The notes below the pieces were generated by a model. The model ran no database searches. It was given only the letters and a program-made list of their open reading frames with translations, and was not told where the DNA came from. A program made the position numbers and the translations under genes. Shown piece by piece: positions 18,324-29,656 of a stretch of DNA of 64,000 nucleotides (within the stretch, counting starts at the first letter, position 1; every line of letters starts with the position of its first letter). The stretch comes from Bdellovibrionota bacterium (GTDB lineage Bacteria; Bdellovibrionota_C; UBA2361; OMII01): contig JBIJBE010000003.1 in NCBI GenBank assembly GCA_044345405.1, positions 8,427 to 72,426 on the forward strand. The letters are read 5' to 3'.

Positions 18324-19043
18324 CTACGCTACCCACGGAAGGAACGACCAGAAGCTCGGCTCATCAGCTGGGTCGTGCATAATATCACGAGCGATACACC
18401 TTCCAGCCTCATTTACCATCGCCTCGGTGTAGAGCATGTCGGATCGTTGCGAGGTCAGTCCAAACGTTCCGCTCACCTCGAACATGTCGTGTCTGTTCGT
18501 GACAACTCGTGAGGTTCCGTACCAGAGGGTCGTTCCTGAATCGGCATCGATAATTTTGGTGTGAATAGTCCACTCATCGAGGCGAGAGAGTCGCTCGAGA
18601 TATCCTACGAGGACGAGATCGTATCCCGCGGTGCGGGCGAGTGAGAGCGCCCCGAAGTTGCCGGTAAAGAAGTCATCCTTCTTGCCAGGCCAGTCTTGAC
18701 GATTGAATACCTCAATTATCGGAAGGGTATCGTATGCGAGCAGCTCTCGTTGGGTTGTCCATCCGAGTTGATCGCTAATTCCCGGAAGCTCAGAGTTCTG
18801 AGCGGTAAAGTTTGCCTGCGTCACGAAGGGGATAACCGCCATGCGCGCGGTGACACCACCCTTAAACCGCTGATCTATGAAGGCGGGAATGTCTGTCCGA
18901 ACATAGGCACGGGTTGTGCAAGTCTCGCCCGTGTGGCGAAAGAGCATCGCGCAGCTGGATAAAATTACCGGGAGTGTCAAAAGACTGACACGGAGAGCAC
19001 CCCGGATCCAGGTTGAAGTTTTTAAGGATGAAGCTAATTGCAT
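18324..19043 (-). CDS. Lipoprotein of the CsgG/FlgO/LpoB-like superfamily. The start is chosen at the Met that gives the signal peptide MQLASS...LPVILSSC.
   Basis: Lipobox LSSC and a GYDLVLVGYLE motif resembling CsgG/FlgO-family cores. The six-frame ORF runs on to 19280, but that extension overlaps the neighbouring gene. Confidence 0.45.
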   Translation of the reverse strand: MQLASSLKTSTWIRGALRVSLLTLPVILSSCAMLFRHTGETCTTRAYVRTDIPAFIDQRFKGGVTARMAVIPFVTQANFTAQNSELPGISDQLGWTTQRELLAYDTLPIIEVFNRQDWPGKKDDFFTGNFGALSLARTAGYDLVLVGYLERLSRLDEWTIHTKIIDADSGTTLWYGTSRVVTNRHDMFEVSGTFGLTSQRSDMLYTEAMVNEAGRCIARDIMHDPADEPSFWSFLPWVA

Positions 19044-19052
19044 GAGGTTACT

Positions 19053-19937
19053 ATGTTTACTCCAGTAGGTCTGAAAACCGGACATACACTTCTCTCGAGA
19101 GTTCAAAGAGTATGCCAGGTTCTGGGCGTTTGCACCGGTATTTTGCTTCTGGGTGCCGCTGGATGTAGCCCTCGCTACGATGACATGCCGGCGTATTGGC
19201 CGATTCCGAATAAAGATTACGACAACTACGGCCCTGGGCGTTTCAAGACCTCCCTCCTCGCGGCTCAGATTGATCGCCACTACCGAGGCTCGGCACCCGG
19301 TCCGATCGGTGTGACAACCTTCGTGAACGTTGATGATCTGTACTCCTCAAGCACTTTTGGACGCATGGTTGGAGAGCAGCTCATGAGTGAACTCGCGATG
19401 AAGGGATTCGATGTTATTGAGCTCCGTCACACCGATGCGCTGCAGTTCCTTGATCGTGGTGGAGAGTTCGCGCTTTCTCGTGACGCGGGTATGGTTCGAC
19501 CGGAGCGAAATCTCGCTGGTGTGGTTGTCGGCACCTACGTGGCTTCGCCAGAGCGGGTGTACGTCAACGCGCGCCTCATCGATCCCTCTACCTCAGTCGT
19601 GCTCTCAGCCGGTTCCGTTGAGATGAGCAAGACTCCCGAGCTGACGAAGCTTCTTCGTGGAGGAAGTCTCCCAGGATCGCTGGAGCGTATCCCCGTTCGA
19701 CACCTCGGAAATGTAACGCAGCAGATCGATCCAACCGAGACCTCTCGACGACGATGGAGTCAGGAGGAGGGAGGATGGGATATTCCTCAGACAGCTCCTG
19801 TGCCAAGCAGCCCTTCAGCGGCGCTTCCGTCAGCCCCTGTTTCGCCCAAGAGTTCGGCGAGCGCTCCTAAGGTTCTGAGCCAGCCCGAGGTTAGTGTGAA
19901 GGACGATGGAGTGGGTCCGGTCGTGAAGGTTCAATAG
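19053..19937 (+). CDS. FlgO/LPP20-like outer-membrane lipoprotein with a Pro/Ser-rich C-terminal tail
   Basis: Lipobox LLLGAAGC. The FlgO-like core is GVTTFVNVDDL...GFDVIE...LAGVVVGTYVASPERVYVNARLID. Confidence 0.45.
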   Translation: MFTPVGLKTGHTLLSRVQRVCQVLGVCTGILLLGAAGCSPRYDDMPAYWPIPNKDYDNYGPGRFKTSLLAAQIDRHYRGSAPGPIGVTTFVNVDDLYSSSTFGRMVGEQLMSELAMKGFDVIELRHTDALQFLDRGGEFALSRDAGMVRPERNLAGVVVGTYVASPERVYVNARLIDPSTSVVLSAGSVEMSKTPELTKLLRGGSLPGSLERIPVRHLGNVTQQIDPTETSRRRWSQEEGGWDIPQTAPVPSSPSAALPSAPVSPKSSASAPKVLSQPEVSVKDDGVGPVVKVQ

Positions 19938-20368: not shown

Positions 20369-21112
20369 GTGCGGCAAACACACAGAGAATCTTTTAACTC
20401 TTTAAGGGGTTACGTATTCATGAGCGCTGTTGAGACAACCAGCCATTTTTGGGTAGCCGCGCCTCCTCTCTACTCAAGCACCCTTCTCGTTGCGCCCGGA
20501 GCTGATAGCTCCGGCCAGGGGCGAGCAACGACGCGACTTGAGATCTTTGATACGGATGGAACTCAGGTTAATTCGGTCGAGGTCGAGTTTCCGAGTTCTG
20601 AGGTAGGCTTTGTTGAGCTTGAGCCCTTCACCGCCGCTCTTAAGATGCAAGGAGGGGTCGCTCACGGCCATCTTAAGGTCACCTCATCTGAAGGGACCCG
20701 ACATCTCTTCCGACAGTCGATCGGCTCGAGCGTTGTGCTCTATCAAGATCCCGTGCCTGTCGCGTCACGCGAGAACAGCTTCATTCCTGTTGTTATTGGC
20801 GGTCGACGAGAGCACATGGTGGTACTCGTCAACGGCGGAGCAGAGGAGGGGCAGATCGCGTGTCGCCTTTTTTACGGCAACCGCTCTCCTGAGTGGACCT
20901 TAACCGTTCCCGGTAACGGAAGTCGCGTTCTTTCCCTTGAGAATGAGCTCATAGCGTCTGCTGACCAAAAAGCGTGGGAGAAGGGAGCTCTTCAAGCGTA
21001 CGTTCGATTGTCAGGGAAGCTCCAGTCGCCGATAGCGGGACACATTATCGAACGGACCCTCGGGGAGTCTCCTGAGCAGGACCTGTATCGTTGTTTACTT
21101 TCTTGGGGATAG
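20369..21112 (+). CDS. Hypothetical protein (P1 of a three-gene operon). The start may be the ATG at 20420.
   Basis: A long ORF with GC3-rich codon usage like its neighbours. Its stop and the next start are 8 bp apart. Confidence 0.4.
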   Translation: MRQTHRESFNSLRGYVFMSAVETTSHFWVAAPPLYSSTLLVAPGADSSGQGRATTRLEIFDTDGTQVNSVEVEFPSSEVGFVELEPFTAALKMQGGVAHGHLKVTSSEGTRHLFRQSIGSSVVLYQDPVPVASRENSFIPVVIGGRREHMVVLVNGGAEEGQIACRLFYGNRSPEWTLTVPGNGSRVLSLENELIASADQKAWEKGALQAYVRLSGKLQSPIAGHIIERTLGESPEQDLYRCLLSWG

Positions 21113-21119
21113 AGGCAGT

Positions 21120-21902
21120 ATGGATCGCGCGGCTCCCGCAGCAGTAAAAACCGTGATGTTTTGTCTCTCAACATCATCGATTAAAACCCGTGTACATTTC
21201 TTTCCGACCGCGGGCTCCACGGCCAGTCATCATCCAATAACGTGCGTTCTCTCGCTCTTCGGTAAGGGGATTGAGAAGCGAGCGGTGATGCTCGACGGTG
21301 GAAGGCTCAATCAGCCCGATGGCGTTCGCCTTGAGGAGGCGTTCCCGACCCTTCGAAATGAAGCCTCGGGTATCTTCGGGTTGGAGATCCAACTCTCGTC
21401 TCAGCAGGGGCGAGTGAACCTTCTTTCGTCTCAAGCCGCGATCGAGCTCGTCTCGCCCCAGGCTTCGATCATGTACTATAGCGCGCCATTCGTTCCCGAT
21501 GTGGAAGAGGTTGCGTCGCCAGAGCCGCAAGGAGATCTCTCCCAGCGCCTAGCTGACGCGCGACGGCGCAGTTTTGTTGGTGTTGGCCTACAGGACGCGT
21601 TCGTAACGACCTCGCTCGTTATGGTTAATTCGACGAACGAAACGGTGCGACCAGCCATCTTCCAAGGAGTGGGAGAGGAGGCTCAATCCCTTCCGGTTGG
21701 AAATATCTCGCCTGAATCGGCGATGGAGATTCCCCTTGAAGAATCGCTCTTCAAGAAGACAACGCCGCATGAATGTCTCTGGGGACTCTCTCGGGCTGAG
21801 AAGATCTCGGTTGGGCCGGATTCTCTCACTCCTCATACCGCTTTCTATGTCATGTATCGTGACCCAGTAAGTAAGCGTCCTGTTTCGGTGTGTGCGTTAT
21901 GA
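21120..21902 (+). CDS. Hypothetical protein (P2). Weak internal similarity to P1 (LEI... beta-rich segments).
   Basis: ORF with operon context. No recognisable motifs. Confidence 0.4.
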   Translation: MDRAAPAAVKTVMFCLSTSSIKTRVHFFPTAGSTASHHPITCVLSLFGKGIEKRAVMLDGGRLNQPDGVRLEEAFPTLRNEASGIFGLEIQLSSQQGRVNLLSSQAAIELVSPQASIMYYSAPFVPDVEEVASPEPQGDLSQRLADARRRSFVGVGLQDAFVTTSLVMVNSTNETVRPAIFQGVGEEAQSLPVGNISPESAMEIPLEESLFKKTTPHECLWGLSRAEKISVGPDSLTPHTAFYVMYRDPVSKRPVSVCAL

Positions 21903-22681
21903 AGTTAGCCATTTTTTCTCCGTACGGTTCCTTCCATCGCGAGAGTGGTCTTATGTACCTCGTCGCGAACTACCTCGATAAGCAGGGTGGTGATGTCGCC
22001 CAGCTTCGGTGCGATGGTGCGCTCCCCGCGTGTGGACGGGATAAGAAGCATCAGAGTGGGCGGACTCCGTTCTCTTGCTTGCAGTGCATGAGCGAACAGA
22101 AGGCGCTCGCTCAGTGGGCGAACATTAAGAGTCGAGACCTCTCGTCGTACATCGTCCCTGATGACGTGCTCAAGAGCGCTCAGTGGATCTCCTCAATCGG
22201 AAAAGCTGATCTCTATCGAATTGAGTTTCGAGGCGTTCGGTTATGGGATGTGTGCGAGAAGGAGTTTCAGTCGCGGTGGACCATCGAGTCGCTTGAGAAG
22301 ATATCACCAGCGCAGGAGCGAGACCTCCGAGCGCTCTACGTTTCGTATGTCCACACCGTTGTGAGCAGCGAGCGCTTTATCGCGTCGTGGAAGCCGACCT
22401 TGCATTTCGTTGTTGGCTCGAACGATCCGCTCGCGCAGGCTTACCTTTCGCAGGTTCGACGCTCGGAGGGCGAAGCTGCCCTCTTCTCGTATGACGCTAC
22501 CAATGAATCGATCTCCGTTGAAGCGCTCAAGAACGGCGAAAAATATACGACGACCTTGATTATCCCCGAAGCAACCGAGATGCGCGCGGATCCCCGCACC
22601 TGGGCTCCAGAGCTCACCGCGATCGTGAACGAGATGCTCTCGTTCCTCGGGCATGGGGCGGATCTGGTGCCGACGAAGTAG
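21890..22681 (+). CDS. Hypothetical protein (P3) with an N-terminal Cys cluster (C-x12-CxxC) that may be a zinc ribbon
   Basis: The ORF overlaps the P2 stop by 13 bp. It is followed by a strong terminator hairpin. Confidence 0.4.
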   Translation: MCVMKLAIFSPYGSFHRESGLMYLVANYLDKQGGDVAQLRCDGALPACGRDKKHQSGRTPFSCLQCMSEQKALAQWANIKSRDLSSYIVPDDVLKSAQWISSIGKADLYRIEFRGVRLWDVCEKEFQSRWTIESLEKISPAQERDLRALYVSYVHTVVSSERFIASWKPTLHFVVGSNDPLAQAYLSQVRRSEGEAALFSYDATNESISVEALKNGEKYTTTLIIPEATEMRADPRTWAPELTAIVNEMLSFLGHGADLVPTK

Positions 22682-22730
22682 GTGACTCGTAGCTCTCGGT
22701 GTCGAGGTTGTTCGGTAGCTGGTTGTTCGA

Positions 22731-22822
22731 CCACAGAGGACGCAAAGGACACAAAGGATCGGCCACCGGCACATCGTGTGCCAGTTCTTTGTGTCCTTTG
22801 CGTCTCTGTGGTTTAGAAAAAA
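22731..22822 (+). terminator. Rho-independent terminator: a ~25-bp near-perfect stem (CCACAGAGGACGCAAAGGACACAAAGG ... TCTTTGTGTCCTTTGCGTCTCTGTGG) with a structured loop, followed by TTTAGAAAAAA
   Basis: The inverted repeat can be read directly. It lies between the convergent P3 (+) and histidine kinase (-) genes. Confidence 0.6.
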
Positions 22823-22940
22823 CTCAAGAAGCTGATTAGAAGCGATGGGCGCTAGGCGAACCGTCTTACCGCGATACCTCCCGCTCGCTGGTGCCCCGCT
22901 CGCTATAAAACGAGGCGGAATAGGAGCTACGCAAGTGTTC

Positions 22941-24251
22941 TCACTGCCCCACCGGCTCCGGCGCCTTTCTTAGCTCAATCGTAAACGAGGTCCCCTGATC
23001 CTGCGCGCTCTCAACCTTGATACTCCCGCCCAGCTTTTCCACAAGCTTCTTCACCGAGGCGAGCCCAACACCGGTACCCTCGATCGTCTCCTCACCGGCG
23101 CGATTGAACGGCTTGAAGATCGAGTCGATCTTATCTGAGCTAATACCTCGTCCGTTATCGGACACCACGATCGAGGTTTTTCGCCGCGAGAGCGCTTTTT
23201 CGGATCCGATCGAGATGAGGAGGGGGCGATCGCTTTTCTTGTATTTGATAGCGTTGCCGATCAGGTTGCTGAAGACCTGATAGAGTTGCGTTTTGTTGCC
23301 GAGGACAACGGGAAGCTCTTGAATGGTCGTGATCTTCGCGTCGCTCTGTTGGATCTGCAGTTGATGATCTTCAAGTACCTCTCGAATAACATCGTGAAGA
23401 GGGATCGGCTCAAGGGACCGCTCTGCAGCCGAGATACGCGCGAGTTCCAGTACCCCCGAGACCAGATCTTGCAAACGCCTCGTCGCCTTTCTGATGTAGG
23501 TAAGGGGTTCCGCGAGCTGCGGATTGTTTTTTATAGCGTCCTCCTCCTCAAGGATTCCGAGCATCCCGGAGACGGTGAGGATCGGGGCTTTCAGATCGTG
23601 GGAGAGCATATAGGTAAACTCGTTTAGATCTTTATTGCGCTCCTCAACCTGTAGCTGATTCATAACGTGCGCCGTGACATCGATAGTGATCGAGAGCGCG
23701 ACGTACTCGTTCGAGGTGTTGTCGAGGATGGGCACGGTTCGGGTCTCTAGCCACAGCGTGATGCCTGATTTGTGGTAGAAGCGGTAACGGCACTGAAAAG
23801 GCTCGCCGGTCGCGACGATGTGGAGCGATCGTTGAACGATCTCTCGGTCCTCATCTTGAACGTTCGCGGTGAGGAAGGTGCTCTTGTTACGATAGATCTC
23901 CGAGAGGGGGAATCCGGTGAGGACCTCAGTGAAGGGGCTACACCACAGCACCGTTCCGTCGGCCTCATGAAGCATCACCGCCGCGGCTACGTTTTCGGTG
24001 AGGATCTTGTACCTGGTGCGATGATCCGTGTCGGATTGTCTTAGTTGCGCGACGAGGTGTTCCAGTTCACCCGCTCTCTTTCCGATCACGGGAATCCATC
24101 GGAGAGGGCCAGAGAAACGGACGCGAGGGGTCTCCTCATCCGCTGACGTGACGATACGAGAGAGGTGAGTAAGCGTCGCGATATACAACGCGGCGAGAGC
24201 GCATAGGAGTAACGCTAGTATCGCCGCGACGTAAATCACCCATTGCTCCAT
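22941..24251 (-). CDS. Membrane-anchored PAS-domain sensor histidine kinase (HisKA + HATPase_c)
   Basis: N-terminal TM helix, a PAS segment, the H-box LSHDLKAPIL and the G-box GTGVGLASVKKLVEKLGG. Confidence 0.8.
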   Translation of the reverse strand: MEQWVIYVAAILALLLCALAALYIATLTHLSRIVTSADEETPRVRFSGPLRWIPVIGKRAGELEHLVAQLRQSDTDHRTRYKILTENVAAAVMLHEADGTVLWCSPFTEVLTGFPLSEIYRNKSTFLTANVQDEDREIVQRSLHIVATGEPFQCRYRFYHKSGITLWLETRTVPILDNTSNEYVALSITIDVTAHVMNQLQVEERNKDLNEFTYMLSHDLKAPILTVSGMLGILEEEDAIKNNPQLAEPLTYIRKATRRLQDLVSGVLELARISAAERSLEPIPLHDVIREVLEDHQLQIQQSDAKITTIQELPVVLGNKTQLYQVFSNLIGNAIKYKKSDRPLLISIGSEKALSRRKTSIVVSDNGRGISSDKIDSIFKPFNRAGEETIEGTGVGLASVKKLVEKLGGSIKVESAQDQGTSFTIELRKAPEPVGQ

Positions 24252-25162
24252 GATTCGTAGAGGGAGCGCTCCTGCTCGAACGCGGATGCCGCTCTGTCGA
24301 GAAGTTCCGCTTGTAAGGGCTCCGCGACCTCAAGGTGGTTCCACGCGTCAGGAAGCATCGGCTCGTAAATCCGTCGCGCTTGATTGGCCTCCCGTCCAGC
24401 GCCGAGCGCGAGGGTATGCGCGATGATGTTAGCGGCTTTGACGAGGGCAACGACGGAGTCTTTCGGAATCTCCTGCCAACTCTTGTGATGTTTACTGATC
24501 ACCGCGGTGAGTTCGGGGGTGAAGTGCCATCGCTCCGCGATGAGGTGACCAACTTGGGTGTGATCGAACGGGTACGCGACCGTTTCGCCATCGATCGATT
24601 GGAGTCCCTCTTCATATCCCTTCGTGACAACCTTTTCATAATTAGTTGTGTGTTGTTGCAACATGAAGAGCTTTCCGATGTCGTGCATCAGCCCTCCAAG
24701 GAAAGCCATATCCGCCTGGGCAGGACGGAGCGTGTTGGCGAGTGTGCGTGCGGTGATCGCGACCGCGATATCGTGCGCCCAGAAGAGGGCCCGTAGAGGA
24801 TGACGAGTGGGGAAGAAGTTAGAGAGCGCGGTGGCGTTCATGAGGCACTGCAGCTCGGATATGCCGATAACGGTGACCGCGTCCGTAATAGTTTTACTGT
24901 CGGAGCCCCGGCTGTAGTAGACCGAGTTCGCTATCTTGAGTACGCGAGCAGAGAGGCCCTCGTCGTGCTCCACGACCGCGATGTAATCTTCGGGCTCAGC
25001 GTTTGGTGAGGTCGCCAATTGAAAGGCCTGCTGAGCGACCTTCGGCATAATTGGCAGTGATTTGATCCCGAGGTAGCTGACGATAGATTGCCGCACCCCG
25101 TCCGCAAGGGTAGGGTGTCCCTCGTTCTGCTTTGATTTGCGCCCGAACAATTTTGATAGCAT
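24236..25162 (-). CDS. HDOD-domain signalling protein
   Basis: HDOD signature (LPIMPKVAQQAF...LKIANSVYY...GLMHDIGKL). It overlaps the downstream kinase start by 16 bp, so the two are in one operon. Confidence 0.75.
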   Translation of the reverse strand: MLSKLFGRKSKQNEGHPTLADGVRQSIVSYLGIKSLPIMPKVAQQAFQLATSPNAEPEDYIAVVEHDEGLSARVLKIANSVYYSRGSDSKTITDAVTVIGISELQCLMNATALSNFFPTRHPLRALFWAHDIAVAITARTLANTLRPAQADMAFLGGLMHDIGKLFMLQQHTTNYEKVVTKGYEEGLQSIDGETVAYPFDHTQVGHLIAERWHFTPELTAVISKHHKSWQEIPKDSVVALVKAANIIAHTLALGAGREANQARRIYEPMLPDAWNHLEVAEPLQAELLDRAASAFEQERSLYESWSNG

Positions 25163-25404
25163 AACCCTCTAATAAGATGACGCTTTCCTTGCGGTCGGTG
25201 CCCGTTTCGATCGTACGCCGGGTTTCCCTCCGCGGTGGCTTACTGATACCGTGGGGTATCGGCACTCCCTCCTCCCTGATGAACGATTCGGCGCTGAGGG
25301 GATGGCGATGGAGCGGTAAGGCTAAGTGCCCTGGTTTTTTCAAGAATTTGCGTTAGAACCGGGGCACGGGTAGTATAGACCGATTAAGAAAGGGCCATTC
25401 GATT

Positions 25405-26769
25405 ATGCATACCCTCGCGAACCCTCACAGCTTTCAGGACGCAACCACCGCAAATCAACTCGTGTTAGTTGTTGATGATGAGGCGAGTATCCGCCGTTCC
25501 CTTGAGGGAGTCTTGAAGGACGAGGGTTTCTCGGTCGTTCTCGCAGAGGATGGGGAGTCGGCCATTCGCATTCTCATGAATACACGACCAGCCCTCGTGC
25601 TTCTCGACATCTGGATGCCGGGGATGGATGGTCTCGAGACCTTACGAAAGATCAAAGAGATCCATCAGGATCTTCCCGTTGTGATGATCAGCGGTCACGC
25701 CACGATCTCAACGGCCGTTGCCGCGACACGACTCGGGGCGATGGACTTCCTTGAGAAGCCACTCGATCTCTCTGGGACTATTCAACTCGTTCGTCGCGTT
25801 CTCAACCAAGCTGAAACGCCAGACTCTGACAATGAGCCCCGATGGGAGGCTATAGAGCCGGCATCTGTTGGACCCCTTCGTGAGTCCGTAACGATCAACC
25901 CTGTGGTCTTCACGAAGCAGACCCTGCGTGGTCGAGCGATGCCTCAAAAAACCCTCGCGCACGCCGCGATCTTGTACGGTCAGGGACTTCACTCCGGTCG
26001 TAAGAGCGGACTTATCCTTGAGCCACTTCCGCCGAACTCTGGTATCCACTTTGTTGGCGTTTCAGAGACCACCGTTGTTCCAGCGCACGTCGACTTCGTT
26101 GAGTCCACCGGATTCGCGACCACCGTTCGCCTGGGTCAGACCCAAGCGGGCACGATTGAACACCTTATGTCCGCGCTCTGCGCCTACGGCATCTCGAACG
26201 TTCTCATCAAGTGTAACGGTGAGGTTCCCGTAATGGACGGCTCGGCGCGTGAGTTCTGCCGCCTCTTTGAAGAGGTAGGTTTGAGCGAGCAGGACGGCGA
26301 GTGGTACGAGATCGATATCAAGAAGGTTATCGAGGTAGGGGATGGGAAAGAGTCCATCCGTATCGAGCCAGCTGATGAGTTCAGCGTCGATTACACCCTT
26401 CGCTATCCTGAGCCGGTTGGCGAGCAGCAGTTCTCATTCACCTTAACTGACTCCGCTTCCTACCGAGATCAGATCTCAGCCGCGAGAACCTTTAGTTTCG
26501 TGAAGGATGTAGGACACCTCCAACGTCAAGGGCTCGCGCTCGGTGGTCGTTTCGATAACTTCCTTCTGATCGGTACCGAAGGCGCTATTAACGATGAGTG
26601 GCGCTATCCAAATGAGCCGGTGCGTCACAAGGTCTTGGACGCTATCGGTGACCTCTTCCTTCTTGGACGGCGTTTGCGTGGAAAGGTCACGGCTCGAATG
26701 ACCGGTCACTCTGACAATATCGCGATCCTTAAGAAGGTTCGTGATGAGTTGATGCGAGCGGGGAGCTAG
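25405..26769 (+). CDS. lpxC: Fusion of a response-regulator receiver (REC) domain to UDP-3-O-acyl-N-acetylglucosamine deacetylase (LpxC)
   Basis: N-terminal REC (LVVDDEASIRRS, the phospho-Asp in LLDIWMPGMDG, the MISGHAT segment). The LpxC part shows GQGLHSGRKS, VPVMDGSAREF and the conserved HKVLDAIGDL zinc-site motif. 454 aa, against ~300 for stand-alone LpxC. Confidence 0.8.
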   Translation: MHTLANPHSFQDATTANQLVLVVDDEASIRRSLEGVLKDEGFSVVLAEDGESAIRILMNTRPALVLLDIWMPGMDGLETLRKIKEIHQDLPVVMISGHATISTAVAATRLGAMDFLEKPLDLSGTIQLVRRVLNQAETPDSDNEPRWEAIEPASVGPLRESVTINPVVFTKQTLRGRAMPQKTLAHAAILYGQGLHSGRKSGLILEPLPPNSGIHFVGVSETTVVPAHVDFVESTGFATTVRLGQTQAGTIEHLMSALCAYGISNVLIKCNGEVPVMDGSAREFCRLFEEVGLSEQDGEWYEIDIKKVIEVGDGKESIRIEPADEFSVDYTLRYPEPVGEQQFSFTLTDSASYRDQISAARTFSFVKDVGHLQRQGLALGGRFDNFLLIGTEGAINDEWRYPNEPVRHKVLDAIGDLFLLGRRLRGKVTARMTGHSDNIAILKKVRDELMRAGS

Positions 26770-26849
26770 TCTCGTCTGTCGATAGCAAGAGAAAAGGCCA
26801 CCACTACTCCTCGTAGTGGTGGCCTTCGTCATTTTTCAGGGATGTCGAC

Positions 26850-27191
26850 CTAGCAGAAGTTGCTGGTCTCTTCGTCGGTAAGTCCGTCCTCGTTGGTCGA
26901 GATAGCGGTAAGGATCGCCTTAGCGTCATCTCTAATCATCGCGGAGAGGCTGTTAATCAAGGTTACGTGACGAGTAACCTCATCCCAGTTTTTGGAAGCG
27001 ATCGCCTCACACAGCGCTACCGCGAGTGTGCGTTGCTTCGACAAGATGGTGTCGTATGACTCGAGGCGCCGTACAACTCCCTCAGGAACAGAGTCTCGAG
27101 TCTTGAAGGTCTGTCGAGCCTTCGTGATCGCGCCCTCAAGCTCAGTGAATGAAGCGAAGAGTTTTTCGATAATCTTTGGTTCCATGGTCAT
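26850..27191 (-). CDS. Hypothetical small helical protein (113 aa)
   Basis: An ORF with an appropriate start. No recognisable motif. Confidence 0.35.
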   Translation of the reverse strand: MTMEPKIIEKLFASFTELEGAITKARQTFKTRDSVPEGVVRRLESYDTILSKQRTLAVALCEAIASKNWDEVTRHVTLINSLSAMIRDDAKAILTAISTNEDGLTDEETSNFC

Positions 27192-27698
27192 AGTCTCCCT
27201 GAAAAATGTACTTCTCGAAATCCGTGTTACGTACCGCAGCTCGAATTTCCTTATTGGACTATCTGACGGCGGGGCGCTTCCTCGCTCGTCGTCGGAAGGT
27301 GAACCCGAAGGTCTCTCAACCGAGTATCTGCCCTGTTATTACGAAATCGGGCTACCTTGTCGCATTTCCCAAACGGAACTACCGAGTCCCCTCGAAAGGG
27401 GCGCAAGAGGGCGTTAGAGGCCCGCAGTAAGCCCCTCAAAAGTCTCGCTACTCCGATAGTGATTCCCATCAAGATCGTGTCTAAAGTTCTCATCTGTTCT
27501 GGCCTCCAACCTGGCAGATAAACGGTTTTGATTGGATACCAGTGCAAAGATGTTGCCAGGTTGTAAGGACCTGATTTTACAGCGCCTTTTTAGAGGCCCT
27601 TATCCTCCGCAGTAGGAGATCGGGCGACTCTTCAGTAGAATAGAGGAGTTAGCCCTGTTTCGATCCACGACACCTGTCTAGCTTGAGAACACCTCCCC

Positions 27699-28886
27699 AT
27701 GACCATCCCGCCGAGTGACCAAACCCCCGTTGCTGAGCCAGCTCCGGCTGCGGCGTGGGAGCGGTGCGAGGTGATCGATGATGGGGACCGCTTTTTTACA
27801 GCGCTTGAGGCCGCAATCGATGCGGCAACCGTGAGCGTTGATGTCGAGTTTTACATCTTCTCCACGGACCAGACGGGGCAACGGTTCTTTGAGGTTCTCA
27901 CTCGCGCGGCTCGGAGGGGTGTGGTGGTTCGTCTTCTGATTGATGGTATCGGCTCAACCGGCTTCGCTCGTAGTTACCGGGAGCGCGCGAAGGCAGCTGG
28001 AATTCTCGTTCGAGTGTTTCACGAACCTCCGTGGGAGCGGTGGCGGTGGTGGCAGCGGCGTCGAGGAGGGGTGGAGAGGAGGTCGACCTGGCGCCGAGTA
28101 TTTCGTCGCCTTAATCATCGCAATCATCGAAAGCTCTGTATTATCGATGGCCGGACCGCGTTCGTTGGAAGTTTTAATGTGACGCGGTATCACCTCGCCT
28201 CTGAGATGGGTACGGCGGCGTGGCGAGATACCGGTGTCATCGTTGAGGGATCAGAGATCTCACTACTTCGTAATACCTTCGAGGATATCTGGATCGGAAA
28301 GTTCCAACGCCTGAAGCGCAAGATCCGACGAAAACGATTGAAGACCAGCCCGCTCGTTAGATTAAATGTGACCGGAAAGCAACGGCGGGAGAACTACCTC
28401 GATCTCTTGGTGAGACTTCTTCGCGCGCGACAGCGAATTTGGATAACGAACGCTTACTTCGTTCCGGATGGTTCATTACTTCGGGTGCTCTCAGTGGTGG
28501 CTCGAGAGGGGATAGATGTGCGAATACTCGTGCCCGGTTTCTCTGACGTCGTGTTTATTCCTTGGATAACCTCAGCTTTCCATTTCGGTCTCCTCTCCGC
28601 TGGGGTTAAAATATTCGAATACCGCGGCTCGGTGCTGCACGCGAAGACGATGGTGATCGATGAGTGGGGGCTGATAGGCTCAAGCAACCTCAATCATAGA
28701 AGTCTGTTGCACGACCTTGAGGCGGATATCGTGGTAACGGATAAGGGTTCGCTCAAGAGTTTGAGCGATCAGTTCGTGACGGATCTCGGTCGCTCCGTCG
28801 AAGTGACCCTTGATAATTGGCGTCAACGTCCGTTTATTGAGAGGTTGCTCGGTCGGGTTCTTCTCTGGTTTAGGTATGTTCTGTAA
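27699..28886 (+). CDS. Phospholipase D / cardiolipin-synthase-family protein with two HKD motifs and a Trp/Arg-rich insertion
   Basis: HKD motifs NHRKLCIIDGRTAFVGSFN and HAKTMVIDEWGLIGSSNLNHRS. The unusual insert is PPWERWRWWQRRRGGVERRSTWRRVFRR. Confidence 0.75.
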   Translation: MTIPPSDQTPVAEPAPAAAWERCEVIDDGDRFFTALEAAIDAATVSVDVEFYIFSTDQTGQRFFEVLTRAARRGVVVRLLIDGIGSTGFARSYRERAKAAGILVRVFHEPPWERWRWWQRRRGGVERRSTWRRVFRRLNHRNHRKLCIIDGRTAFVGSFNVTRYHLASEMGTAAWRDTGVIVEGSEISLLRNTFEDIWIGKFQRLKRKIRRKRLKTSPLVRLNVTGKQRRENYLDLLVRLLRARQRIWITNAYFVPDGSLLRVLSVVAREGIDVRILVPGFSDVVFIPWITSAFHFGLLSAGVKIFEYRGSVLHAKTMVIDEWGLIGSSNLNHRSLLHDLEADIVVTDKGSLKSLSDQFVTDLGRSVEVTLDNWRQRPFIERLLGRVLLWFRYVL

Positions 28887-28894
28887 CGACACGC

Positions 28895-29656
28895 ATGGTC
28901 GATACCAGGGTTCTCAAAATTCTCTCCTATAACATTCACAAAGGGCTCGGCCTTGGTAATCGCGCGTTTACGCTCCCACGGATTCGGGAATCCCTTCAAG
29001 CACTCCAGCCCGACATCGTCTTCTTGCAAGAGGTTCTCGGGCAACACGATAAGCACGCCAACCGTTTTCAGGGGTGGCCAACGCTCTCGCAGAGCGATTT
29101 CCTCGCTGAGGCAGGATGGCCCCACGCCGCGTACGGTAAAAACGCGGTCTACTCGCACGGACATCACGGCAACGCTATCTTGAGTAAGTATCCGATCGTT
29201 GAGTACGAGAATATCGATGTCTCAACGAACGCCTTTGAGTCCCGAGGGATCCTTCACGCGGTTATCAAAGTCCCGTGGAGTGAGGTTCCCGTTCACTGTA
29301 TCTGTGTCCACCTCAATATGCTTCGTCGTGGACGTGACGCGCAGCTCAAGCATCTCTGCCGACGGGTGATGCGGAGTGTTAGTGAAGCGGAGCCCCTAAT
29401 CGTCGCGGGCGATTTTAATGATTGGCAAGAGAGCGCCACAAAGCAGCTCTTCGATGATATCGGGGTGCATGAGGTATTTCACACCTTACGTGGAGCGCAC
29501 GCGCCGACCTTTCCGAGTAGGTTTCCCGTGCTACGGCTCGATCGGGTGTATGCCCGCGGGGTGAAGGCGCTTGGTGGCGAGATCCTAAACGGCCCCCCGT
29601 GGACCGATCTCTCAGATCACGCGCCGCTCTTGGCGCAGTTAGAGATAGAGATTTAG
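28895..29656 (+). CDS. Endonuclease/exonuclease/phosphatase (EEP) family protein
   Basis: EEP motifs (ILSYNIHKG, FLQEV, the GDFND box, the C-terminal SDHAP motif). It lies 9 bp after the PLD gene. Confidence 0.7.
   Translation: MVDTRVLKILSYNIHKGLGLGNRAFTLPRIRESLQALQPDIVFLQEVLGQHDKHANRFQGWPTLSQSDFLAEAGWPHAAYGKNAVYSHGHHGNAILSKYPIVEYENIDVSTNAFESRGILHAVIKVPWSEVPVHCICVHLNMLRRGRDAQLKHLCRRVMRSVSEAEPLIVAGDFNDWQESATKQLFDDIGVHEVFHTLRGAHAPTFPSRFPVLRLDRVYARGVKALGGEILNGPPWTDLSDHAPLLAQLEIEI

Follow-up and report, generated by a model that had tools for sequence, protein, structure and literature searches.

A receiver-fused LpxC lies head-to-head with a kinase-HDOD gene pair

The locus described here lies in a 64-kb stretch of the genome of a Bdellovibrionota bacterium (assembly GCA_044345405.1, contig JBIJBE010000003.1), referred to below as the window. 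It consists of three genes. One encodes LpxC, the enzyme of the committed step of lipopolysaccharide (lipid A) synthesis and an antibiotic target, fused to a two-component receiver domain (REC). The other two, encoding a histidine kinase and a stand-alone HDOD protein, are both divergent from the intact REC-lpxC gene in the list of open reading frames (ORFs). A first-pass annotation, made from the sequence alone, had suggested that the three genes form a dedicated signaling module. All three ORFs are found at the coordinates it gave, and Pfam matched the domains it claimed for them. Its statement that no DNA-binding regulator adjoins the kinase gene also holds. The features of the block are as follows.

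22941-24251, minus strand: kinase gene, with transmembrane (TM), PAS, HisKA and HATPase segments (ORF list and Pfam)
24005-23667: kinase PAS domain, residues 83-195 (Pfam PAS_3, 1.8e-9)
23627-23427: kinase HisKA/DHp domain, residues 209-275 (Pfam HisKA, 9.4e-12)
23600-23598: kinase phospho-acceptor His218 (H box in the translation)
23297-22965: kinase HATPase domain, residues 319-429 (Pfam HATPase_c, 9.3e-27)
24236-25162, minus strand: gene for the stand-alone HDOD protein (ORF list and Pfam)
25163-25404, unstranded: divergent intergenic spacer, 242 bp (ORF coordinates)
25335-25376, plus strand: promoter-like element of REC-lpxC (alignment of the 19 spacers of the clade defined below)
25405-26769, plus strand: REC-LpxC fusion gene (Pfam, NCBIfam and alignments)
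25462-25782: REC domain, residues 20-126 (Pfam)
25606-25608: REC phospho-acceptor D68
REC-LpxC residues ~140-178: variable linker
25945-26739: LpxC domain, residues 181-445 (Pfam, profile positions 1-266 of 268)
26794-26826, unstranded: bidirectional hairpin with a 14-bp stem, closing REC-lpxC and a convergent 113-amino-acid gene

Comparisons were made among species-representative genomes. The clade, as the term is used here, comprises the 19 loci at which REC-LpxC shares 71% or more identity with the window protein.

The REC-LpxC fusion protein

The fusion is 454 amino acids long (Pfam Response_reg 5.4e-31, LpxC 4.7e-79), has no long C-terminal tail and scores 221.4 bits against a curated lpxC equivalog cut-off of 187.25 (TIGR00325). 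Its LpxC domain aligns end to end with LpxC of Pseudomonas aeruginosa and retains the EH, HKxxD and GH motifs and the TF. TIEHL, RHKVLDAIGD and TGHS of the window protein, which are invariant in its homologues, align with TVEHL, KHKILDAIGD and SGHA of the P. aeruginosa enzyme; the three Zn ligands (two His and one Asp) are in place, as are the catalytic Glu and His. The receiver pocket residues D24/D25, D68, S96 and K118 do not vary among 22 close homologues or among the 76 fusions that were aligned. Because the protein holds all of the residues for phosphorylation and for catalysis, the non-transcriptional two-component output suggested by the first-pass annotation is the natural reading of the sequence.

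The best matches of the receiver are to NtrX (NCBIfam NtrX, 1.5e-36; the Brucella NtrX structures PDB 4d6x and 5m7n). Proteins of the NtrX family combine a receiver with an AAA+ domain lacking GAFTGA and a Fis-type helix-turn-helix (HTH). Pfam finds neither an AAA+ domain nor an HTH in the window protein, which is therefore not itself an NtrX. From this architecture and from the distribution described below, we consider it likely that LpxC is built here to be regulated when its fused, NtrX-derived receiver is phosphorylated. A phosphate on D68 would alter the deacetylase activity directly, much as the CheB receiver gates its esterase.

Within the otherwise variable linker, residues ~163-176 (~25891-25932) read NPVVFTKQTLRG, and the pattern xNPvVFxxQxxRG is conserved in the Bdellovibrionota-like clades. 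Lying just ahead of the LpxC domain, this segment may have a regulatory function in the fusion.

The kinase and the HDOD protein form a coupled pair

The kinase is 436 amino acids long if translated from ATG 24251 and 432 if translated from GTG 24239. Read from the sequence, a hydrophobic N-terminal stretch places a TM segment at residues 5-27, and the translation contains N, G1, F and G2 boxes (NLIGNAIKY, DNGRG, FKPF and GTGVGL). Having both an H box and the ATP-binding boxes, the protein qualifies as a HisKA-type sensor histidine kinase. All 19 kinase orthologues carry the His box SHDLK(A/N)P, and no domain is better conserved among them than PAS. When the PAS and DHp segments of the window kinase were searched against the whole library, they recovered a family of small single-PAS kinases that are 40-50% identical to it, and the His218 H box SHDLKAP is kept across 166 members of this family. 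One HDOD-associated family member (P0144) has SQDL in place of SHDL and consequently no phospho-acceptor histidine.

The HDOD protein has 308 amino acids (Pfam HDOD 2.4e-47, 161.4 bits against a gathering threshold of 22.9; HD 1e-6). Its closest solved structure is 3HC1 (E = 7e-20), and every aligned His and Asp of the di-iron site of 3HC1 is retained. The motifs WAHD, MHDIG, FDH and KHH align to 3HC1 and are kept across the family of HDOD-kinase gene pairs, referred to below as cassettes. Eighteen clade and seven out-of-clade members all share H160, D161, H201, H225, H226 and H249, and the HD-type metal site is accordingly predicted to be intact.

The HDOD and kinase frames share 16 bp with the kinase start at ATG 24251 and 4 bp (GTGA) with the start at GTG 24239; in six of 18 kinase orthologues, a start equivalent to GTG 24239 is the only one present. 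The two genes are translationally coupled whichever start is used. In each of the 12 distinct out-of-clade contexts, the kinase gene directly follows an HDOD gene, with the frames overlapping or no more than ~10 bp apart. The overlap under either start, together with this pairing, bears out the earlier proposal that the two genes form one operon, and their products very probably work as one unit. The HDOD protein, with its di-metal site, would then act in the cytoplasm, either as a co-sensor for the PAS kinase or as its modulator; the kinase itself is membrane-anchored and lacks a periplasmic domain.

Alternatively, the HDOD protein could act on REC-LpxC itself, either as an adaptor handing it to a protease, the role of SadB toward AmrZ, or by dephosphorylating the receiver. 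SadB is an HDOD protein and a proteolysis adaptor (PMC12075610), LpxC of Escherichia coli is controlled by proteolysis (PMC12444477) and the fusion has no C-terminal degron tail of the E. coli type. Yet HDOD is paired with the kinase rather than with LpxC in each of the 12 out-of-clade contexts and, unlike SadB, it retains a full metal site, which makes a direct action on REC-LpxC very unlikely.

The divergent genes are separate transcription units

The first-pass annotation had proposed that the two transcription units share a promoter region. The 242-bp spacer is real, but a shared promoter is not obvious, since REC-lpxC has an element of its own in all 19 clade members. Spacers between the HDOD-kinase pair and REC-lpxC are 177-414 bp long in the clade, with a 2-kb insertion in L009. 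In the window, the element consists of a T-rich stretch, TTGCGT (25348-25353), a 17-nucleotide spacer and TAGTAT (25371-25376), and the columns TTTC..TTTGCGTT..GTAsTAT are kept in 19/19 aligned spacers. A σ70 consensus scan of the 242-bp spacer gave no match; the element scores under the consensus thresholds of that scan and emerged solely from the alignment, so that its role as a promoter is suggested by conservation. No σ54 -24/-12 match was seen in the spacer by eye, and an Rfam scan of 22000-27600 (E ≤ 1) returned sub-threshold noise only. Because REC-lpxC has both its own promoter-like element and its own strong hairpin 3' of the stop codon, it is a separate monocistronic unit.

The three-gene block is conserved through exchanges of its flanks

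At 19/19 clade loci, REC-lpxC faces the kinase and HDOD genes in a head-to-head arrangement. Identity to the window ranges from 71 to 98% for REC-LpxC and from 54 to 88% for the kinase, and falls to 53% for HDOD and to 43% for one flanking gene. The outer neighbors vary repeatedly across this deep clade: four different kinds adjoin the kinase end of the block and no fewer than five the LpxC end. Four loci (L011, L012, L038 and L079) have exchanged flanks around an unbroken three-gene block, and the inner junction is disturbed once only, by the insertion in L009. The clade kinases form one nested, monophyletic branch of the kinase tree.

Lack of conservation of this neighborhood in relatives had been named beforehand as an outcome that would count against a dedicated module; the block is conserved in all 19. 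The part of that claim that concerns conservation of the neighborhood therefore stands. Dedication of the kinase to REC-LpxC is plausible rather than established, as the cassette is older than its association with the fusion (see below).

Within the 64-kb window, no second kinase core, HDOD protein or LpxC is encoded. The pairing of kinase and REC-LpxC is plausibly supported by (i) the intact residues of both proteins, (ii) the 19/19 linkage through flank swaps, (iii) the absence of another kinase core in the 64 kb and (iv) changes in the kinase DHp domain that are described below. In the reading that we favor, the block is a kinase-to-REC-LpxC module in which the kinase has been rewired onto the LpxC receiver, coupling HDOD and PAS to lipid A flux. 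We give this reading slightly less than an even chance.

Receiver-fused LpxC is older and wider than the three-gene block

The scan of species-representative genomes identified 79 loci with a receiver-fused LpxC in several phyla. The 60 that lie outside the clade are labeled Bdellovibrionales, Oligoflexia, Thermodesulfobacteriota, Syntrophaceae, Deferrimicrobium, Thermodesulfovibrionia, Aminicenantes, Chrysiogenia and others. REC-LpxC is thus much older and wider than the three-gene module of the clade. In the sister clade, its context is a housekeeping one, with purA upstream and mreB downstream (both confirmed by Pfam); the genes before purA we take, by eye, to be infB, rbfA, a DHH phosphoesterase gene and truB. 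Together with the slow divergence of REC-LpxC in the clade relative to the kinase and the lack of another LpxC in the 64 kb, this context hints that the fusion may be the housekeeping LpxC of the organism.

At seven loci, a kinase gene lies directly upstream of REC-lpxC on the same strand, and these kinases are NtrY-like; the one examined by domains has an NtrY_N-HAMP-PAS-HisKA-HATPase architecture. Given these seven genomes, REC-LpxC is, as judged by gene order, a genuine two-component output elsewhere. Two of the seven (L075:727-2943 and L077:4594-6819) encode proteins of 739-742 amino acids that combine a receiver, a σ54-type AAA+ domain with a Walker A motif and no GAFTGA, a Fis-type HTH-like stretch and a complete LpxC. 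Each directly follows an NtrY-like kinase. They resemble complete NtrX proteins with LpxC fused on, and may be intermediates between an ntrYX-lpxC gene order and REC-LpxC. At two further loci, the receiver and LpxC are in separate ORFs, with a single in-frame stop between them (L027:1449-2765) or a frame change (L078:5827-7345); these splits may be sequencing errors, pseudogenes or genuine.

Targeted literature searches found no description of a receiver-LpxC fusion. A 2025 review of lipid A regulation contains neither the word "receiver" nor the word "fused" and does not mention a receiver-fused LpxC (PMC12444477).

Which receiver does the kinase serve?

In five of the 12 out-of-clade contexts (P0128, L089, L090, L091 and L093), a stand-alone CheY-like receiver of 132-139 amino acids is encoded 3' of the kinase, followed by motA-motB wherever the contig extends that far. 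The HDOD-kinase-receiver arrangement is probably ancestral, since these five cassettes are spread over separate kinase-tree branches. An argument from the rarity of this receiver type, based on a word-indexed search with the L089 and L090 receivers that returned the queries alone, was withdrawn: diverged copies occur in distant branches.

The wider neighborhoods of the out-of-clade cassettes were also recorded. Upstream of HDOD in L080, L082, L087, L090 and L091 are divergent GT-C glycosyltransferases (PMT_2/Dpy19-like, ArnT-type fold) and a conserved unannotated gene of ~190 amino acids, and downstream of out-of-clade cassettes come genes for a DegT-type aminotransferase, MotAB, LemA or flagellin. 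Pfam and NCBIfam gave no match for the ~190- and ~300-amino-acid genes around these cassettes. The neighborhoods suggest that the original role of the cassette was in motility or in surface/flagellin glycosylation.

If the kinase does act on REC-LpxC in the clade, the cassette would have lost its CheY-like receiver/motAB context and come to lie head-to-head with REC-lpxC, and its DHp helices would have been altered. The kinase would thereby have been rewired to phosphorylate or dephosphorylate the LpxC receiver, and lipid A flux would be coupled to whatever HDOD and PAS sense. The broader proposal, that lipid A synthesis is under aspartyl-phosphorylation control through an NtrX-derived receiver in at least 79 species and that a motility-associated HDOD-kinase cassette was captured here and rewired onto it, is offered tentatively.

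The same gene order could also reflect adjacency without phosphotransfer. The cassette would then keep an unlinked CheY-like receiver, probably one for motility, and REC-LpxC would answer to an unlinked NtrY-type kinase; the head-to-head order would reflect co-regulation, another functional tie or slow decay of gene order in one family. Several observations favor this account and weigh against rewiring. First, the HDOD-kinase-receiver operons with motA-motB include distant kinase branches, and the window has flagellar genes at 3-12 kb from its cassette. Second, adjacency and linkage of the kinase with REC-LpxC are conserved in 19/19 loci, but the genes are divergent and do not share an operon. 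Third, an orphan REC-LpxC is the norm, as ~45 of the 60 non-clade loci have no two-component gene within 6 kb, and where a kinase lies directly upstream it is of the rival, NtrY-like type. Fourth, Oligoflexia SSF28 (GCA_019694515.1, JAIBBU01) carries a cassette with no adjacent receiver on contig 6 (L092) and a REC-LpxC in a housekeeping context on contig 12 (L030). As both come from one assembly, this genome holds the two parts unlinked, and it provides a natural case for asking whether they cooperate in that state.

The contact helix α1 of the NtrX-like receiver, DDEASIRRSLEGVL, is unchanged in the clade. Virtually the same helix, DDEASIRKSLEGVL, is carried by lineages without the cassette (L018 and L020), and a near-identical one, DDEASIRRSLSDIL, by L054, which lies behind an NtrY-like kinase. 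The stand-alone receivers of the cassettes share the helix DDE[PA]AH.xL..RAL despite a mutual identity of 30-49%, and this helix is quite unlike that of REC-LpxC; yet DHp helix 1 of the kinases in operons with these receivers is almost identical to that of the window kinase. His+11 (G) and His+12 (M) are invariant across the kinase family. An AlphaFold2 model of REC-LpxC (22 homologues, at least 75% identity), which had a mean predicted local distance difference test score of 51.8 and a predicted template-modeling score of 0.35, gave no usable inter-domain interface.

Against adjacency without phosphotransfer stand the absence of motAB from the 64-kb window, the absence of a CheY-like receiver of the cassette's native type from the window and from every clade locus, and the survival of the block through at least four to five rearrangements per side. 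The DHp domain has also changed in the clade. Compared with 130 family members, the clade-fixed changes are His+7 F to V/L/N and, in helix 2, H252Y (at its start), S266G, Y270L and S271A. All five kinases in operons with receivers retain F/Y at His+7, H252 and Y270, and the receiver-bearing tip group P0128/P0271/P0272 shows just two conservative DHp differences. The aromatic residue at His+7 has also been lost in some family members outside the clade, which counts against rewiring; H252Y and Y270L, in helix 2, appear to be clade-specific. These substitutions are circumstantial support for rewiring. A candidate covariation within the clade between kinase positions His+7 to +10 and receiver V36I was rejected, because it tracks one subclade and is confounded by phylogeny. 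Taken together, we regard adjacency without phosphotransfer as the chief rival account, credible though clearly short of probable.

A branched pathway would reconcile the conserved receiver helix with the conserved linkage. Here the kinase would serve both a CheY-like protein and REC-LpxC, or REC-LpxC would integrate signals from an NtrY-like kinase and from this one, with HDOD setting the balance between kinase and phosphatase activity. The layout at L068, L070 and L071, where a kinase and an NtrC-type regulator are encoded 2 kb upstream of REC-lpxC, is compatible with one kinase acting on two receivers. However, cognate two-component pairs are normally insulated from one another, and we consider a branched pathway unlikely. 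Whichever receiver the kinase serves, the locus is a case of two separately ancient signaling parts held together by one freshwater Bdellovibrionota-like lineage.

Flanking genes

REC-LpxC had been described as the only receiver near the kinase. This is true of adjacency, but a REC-HisKA protein without an ATPase domain is encoded 7.6 kb from the kinase (14655-15377, plus strand, 240 amino acids). It is the sole other two-component protein in the window and could be a phosphorelay or phosphatase component. Its gene has flagellar neighbors (FlhA, 11840-13753; FliN-like, 10547-11413; FlgO, 19038-19937).

On the far side of REC-lpxC, 27699-29656 (plus strand) encodes a cardiolipin-synthase-like PLD protein (180 bits with the ClsB model, below its cut-off) and then a protein of the endonuclease/exonuclease/phosphatase family, which resembles the clsB-ybhP pairing of E. 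coli. Many clade members keep this pair close to the block, to one side or the other, so that membrane-lipid genes are neighbors of REC-LpxC. Often flanking the block, and likewise conserved in the clade, are three consecutive ORFs at 20369-22681 (plus strand; 247, 260 and 263 amino acids) and the 113-amino-acid ORF at 26850-27191 (minus strand). Pfam and NCBIfam gave no family match for any of these four.

Comparison with known systems

In having an N-terminal receiver with a complete pocket and a non-transcriptional output, REC-LpxC resembles CheB, PleD and RpfG, and with CheB it shares a flexible linker to a hydrolytic domain. It differs from CheB in that the output is LpxC, an essential biosynthetic Zn-deacetylase and not a signaling enzyme, and in being known here from sequence alone.

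NtrY/NtrX is the closest relative of the receiver and, in other phyla, of the kinases upstream of REC-LpxC. The window kinase is not NtrY-like, as it has no NtrY_N or HAMP and a different DHp domain, and control here would be post-translational. Two-component control of lpxC has a transcriptional precedent: NtrYX represses lpxC transcription in Rhodobacter sphaeroides and Caulobacter crescentus (PMC12444477; PMC7240162), and DVU2931-2934 of Desulfovibrio vulgaris comprises a kinase, an HD-GYP regulator and a σ54 regulator with lpxC as the single target (PMC3333781; PMC4114195). The latter is likewise a dedicated two-component unit tied to LpxC and containing an HD-superfamily protein, a likeness of gene content. 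It differs from the block in that a separate lpxC gene is transcribed and the HD protein is a REC-PAS-HD-GYP phosphodiesterase, whereas here the receiver is on LpxC and the HDOD protein stands alone. The series NtrY, NtrX-LpxC and REC-LpxC also provides a gene-fusion argument for the effects of NtrYX on lpxC and the envelope in alphaproteobacteria.

LpxC of E. coli has a long C-terminal tail with a degron, which the fusion does not, and is subject to FtsH/LapB/YejM proteolysis; in P. aeruginosa, LpxC is activated by MurA. The mechanism here would be phosphorylation of a fused domain. How LpxC activity is set outside the Enterobacteria and Pseudomonas is an open question (PMC12444477). If the reading is correct, receiver-fused LpxC would be a third type of control beside proteolysis and activator binding, and phospho-control of LpxC would be a mode absent from current reviews.

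The HDOD-kinase pair recalls the H-NOX/HnoK and NosP/NahK operons, in which the gene for a small cytoplasmic metal-center protein lies immediately upstream of, and is coupled to, that for a kinase without a periplasmic sensor. The sensor fold here is HDOD, and regulation of the kinase by it is suggested solely by the obligate gene pairing. We know of no agreed function for HDOD domains and of no report that describes 3HC1, SadB, GsmR or DVU0330 as an obligate partner of a histidine kinase. With 3HC1 of Geobacter sulfurreducens and with DVU0330, the protein shares the Pfam HDOD fold and the His/Asp metal ligands. SadB and GsmR differ in having degenerate sites (for the SadB HDOD, see PMC12075610) and extra domains (YbaK and REC). 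The obligate pair with its conserved metal site offers a concrete candidate role for HDOD, that of a kinase co-sensor. If the kinase has indeed been rewired onto REC-LpxC, the flux of outer-membrane lipid would be set by a signal from the cytoplasm that the di-metal HDOD protein and the PAS domain read.

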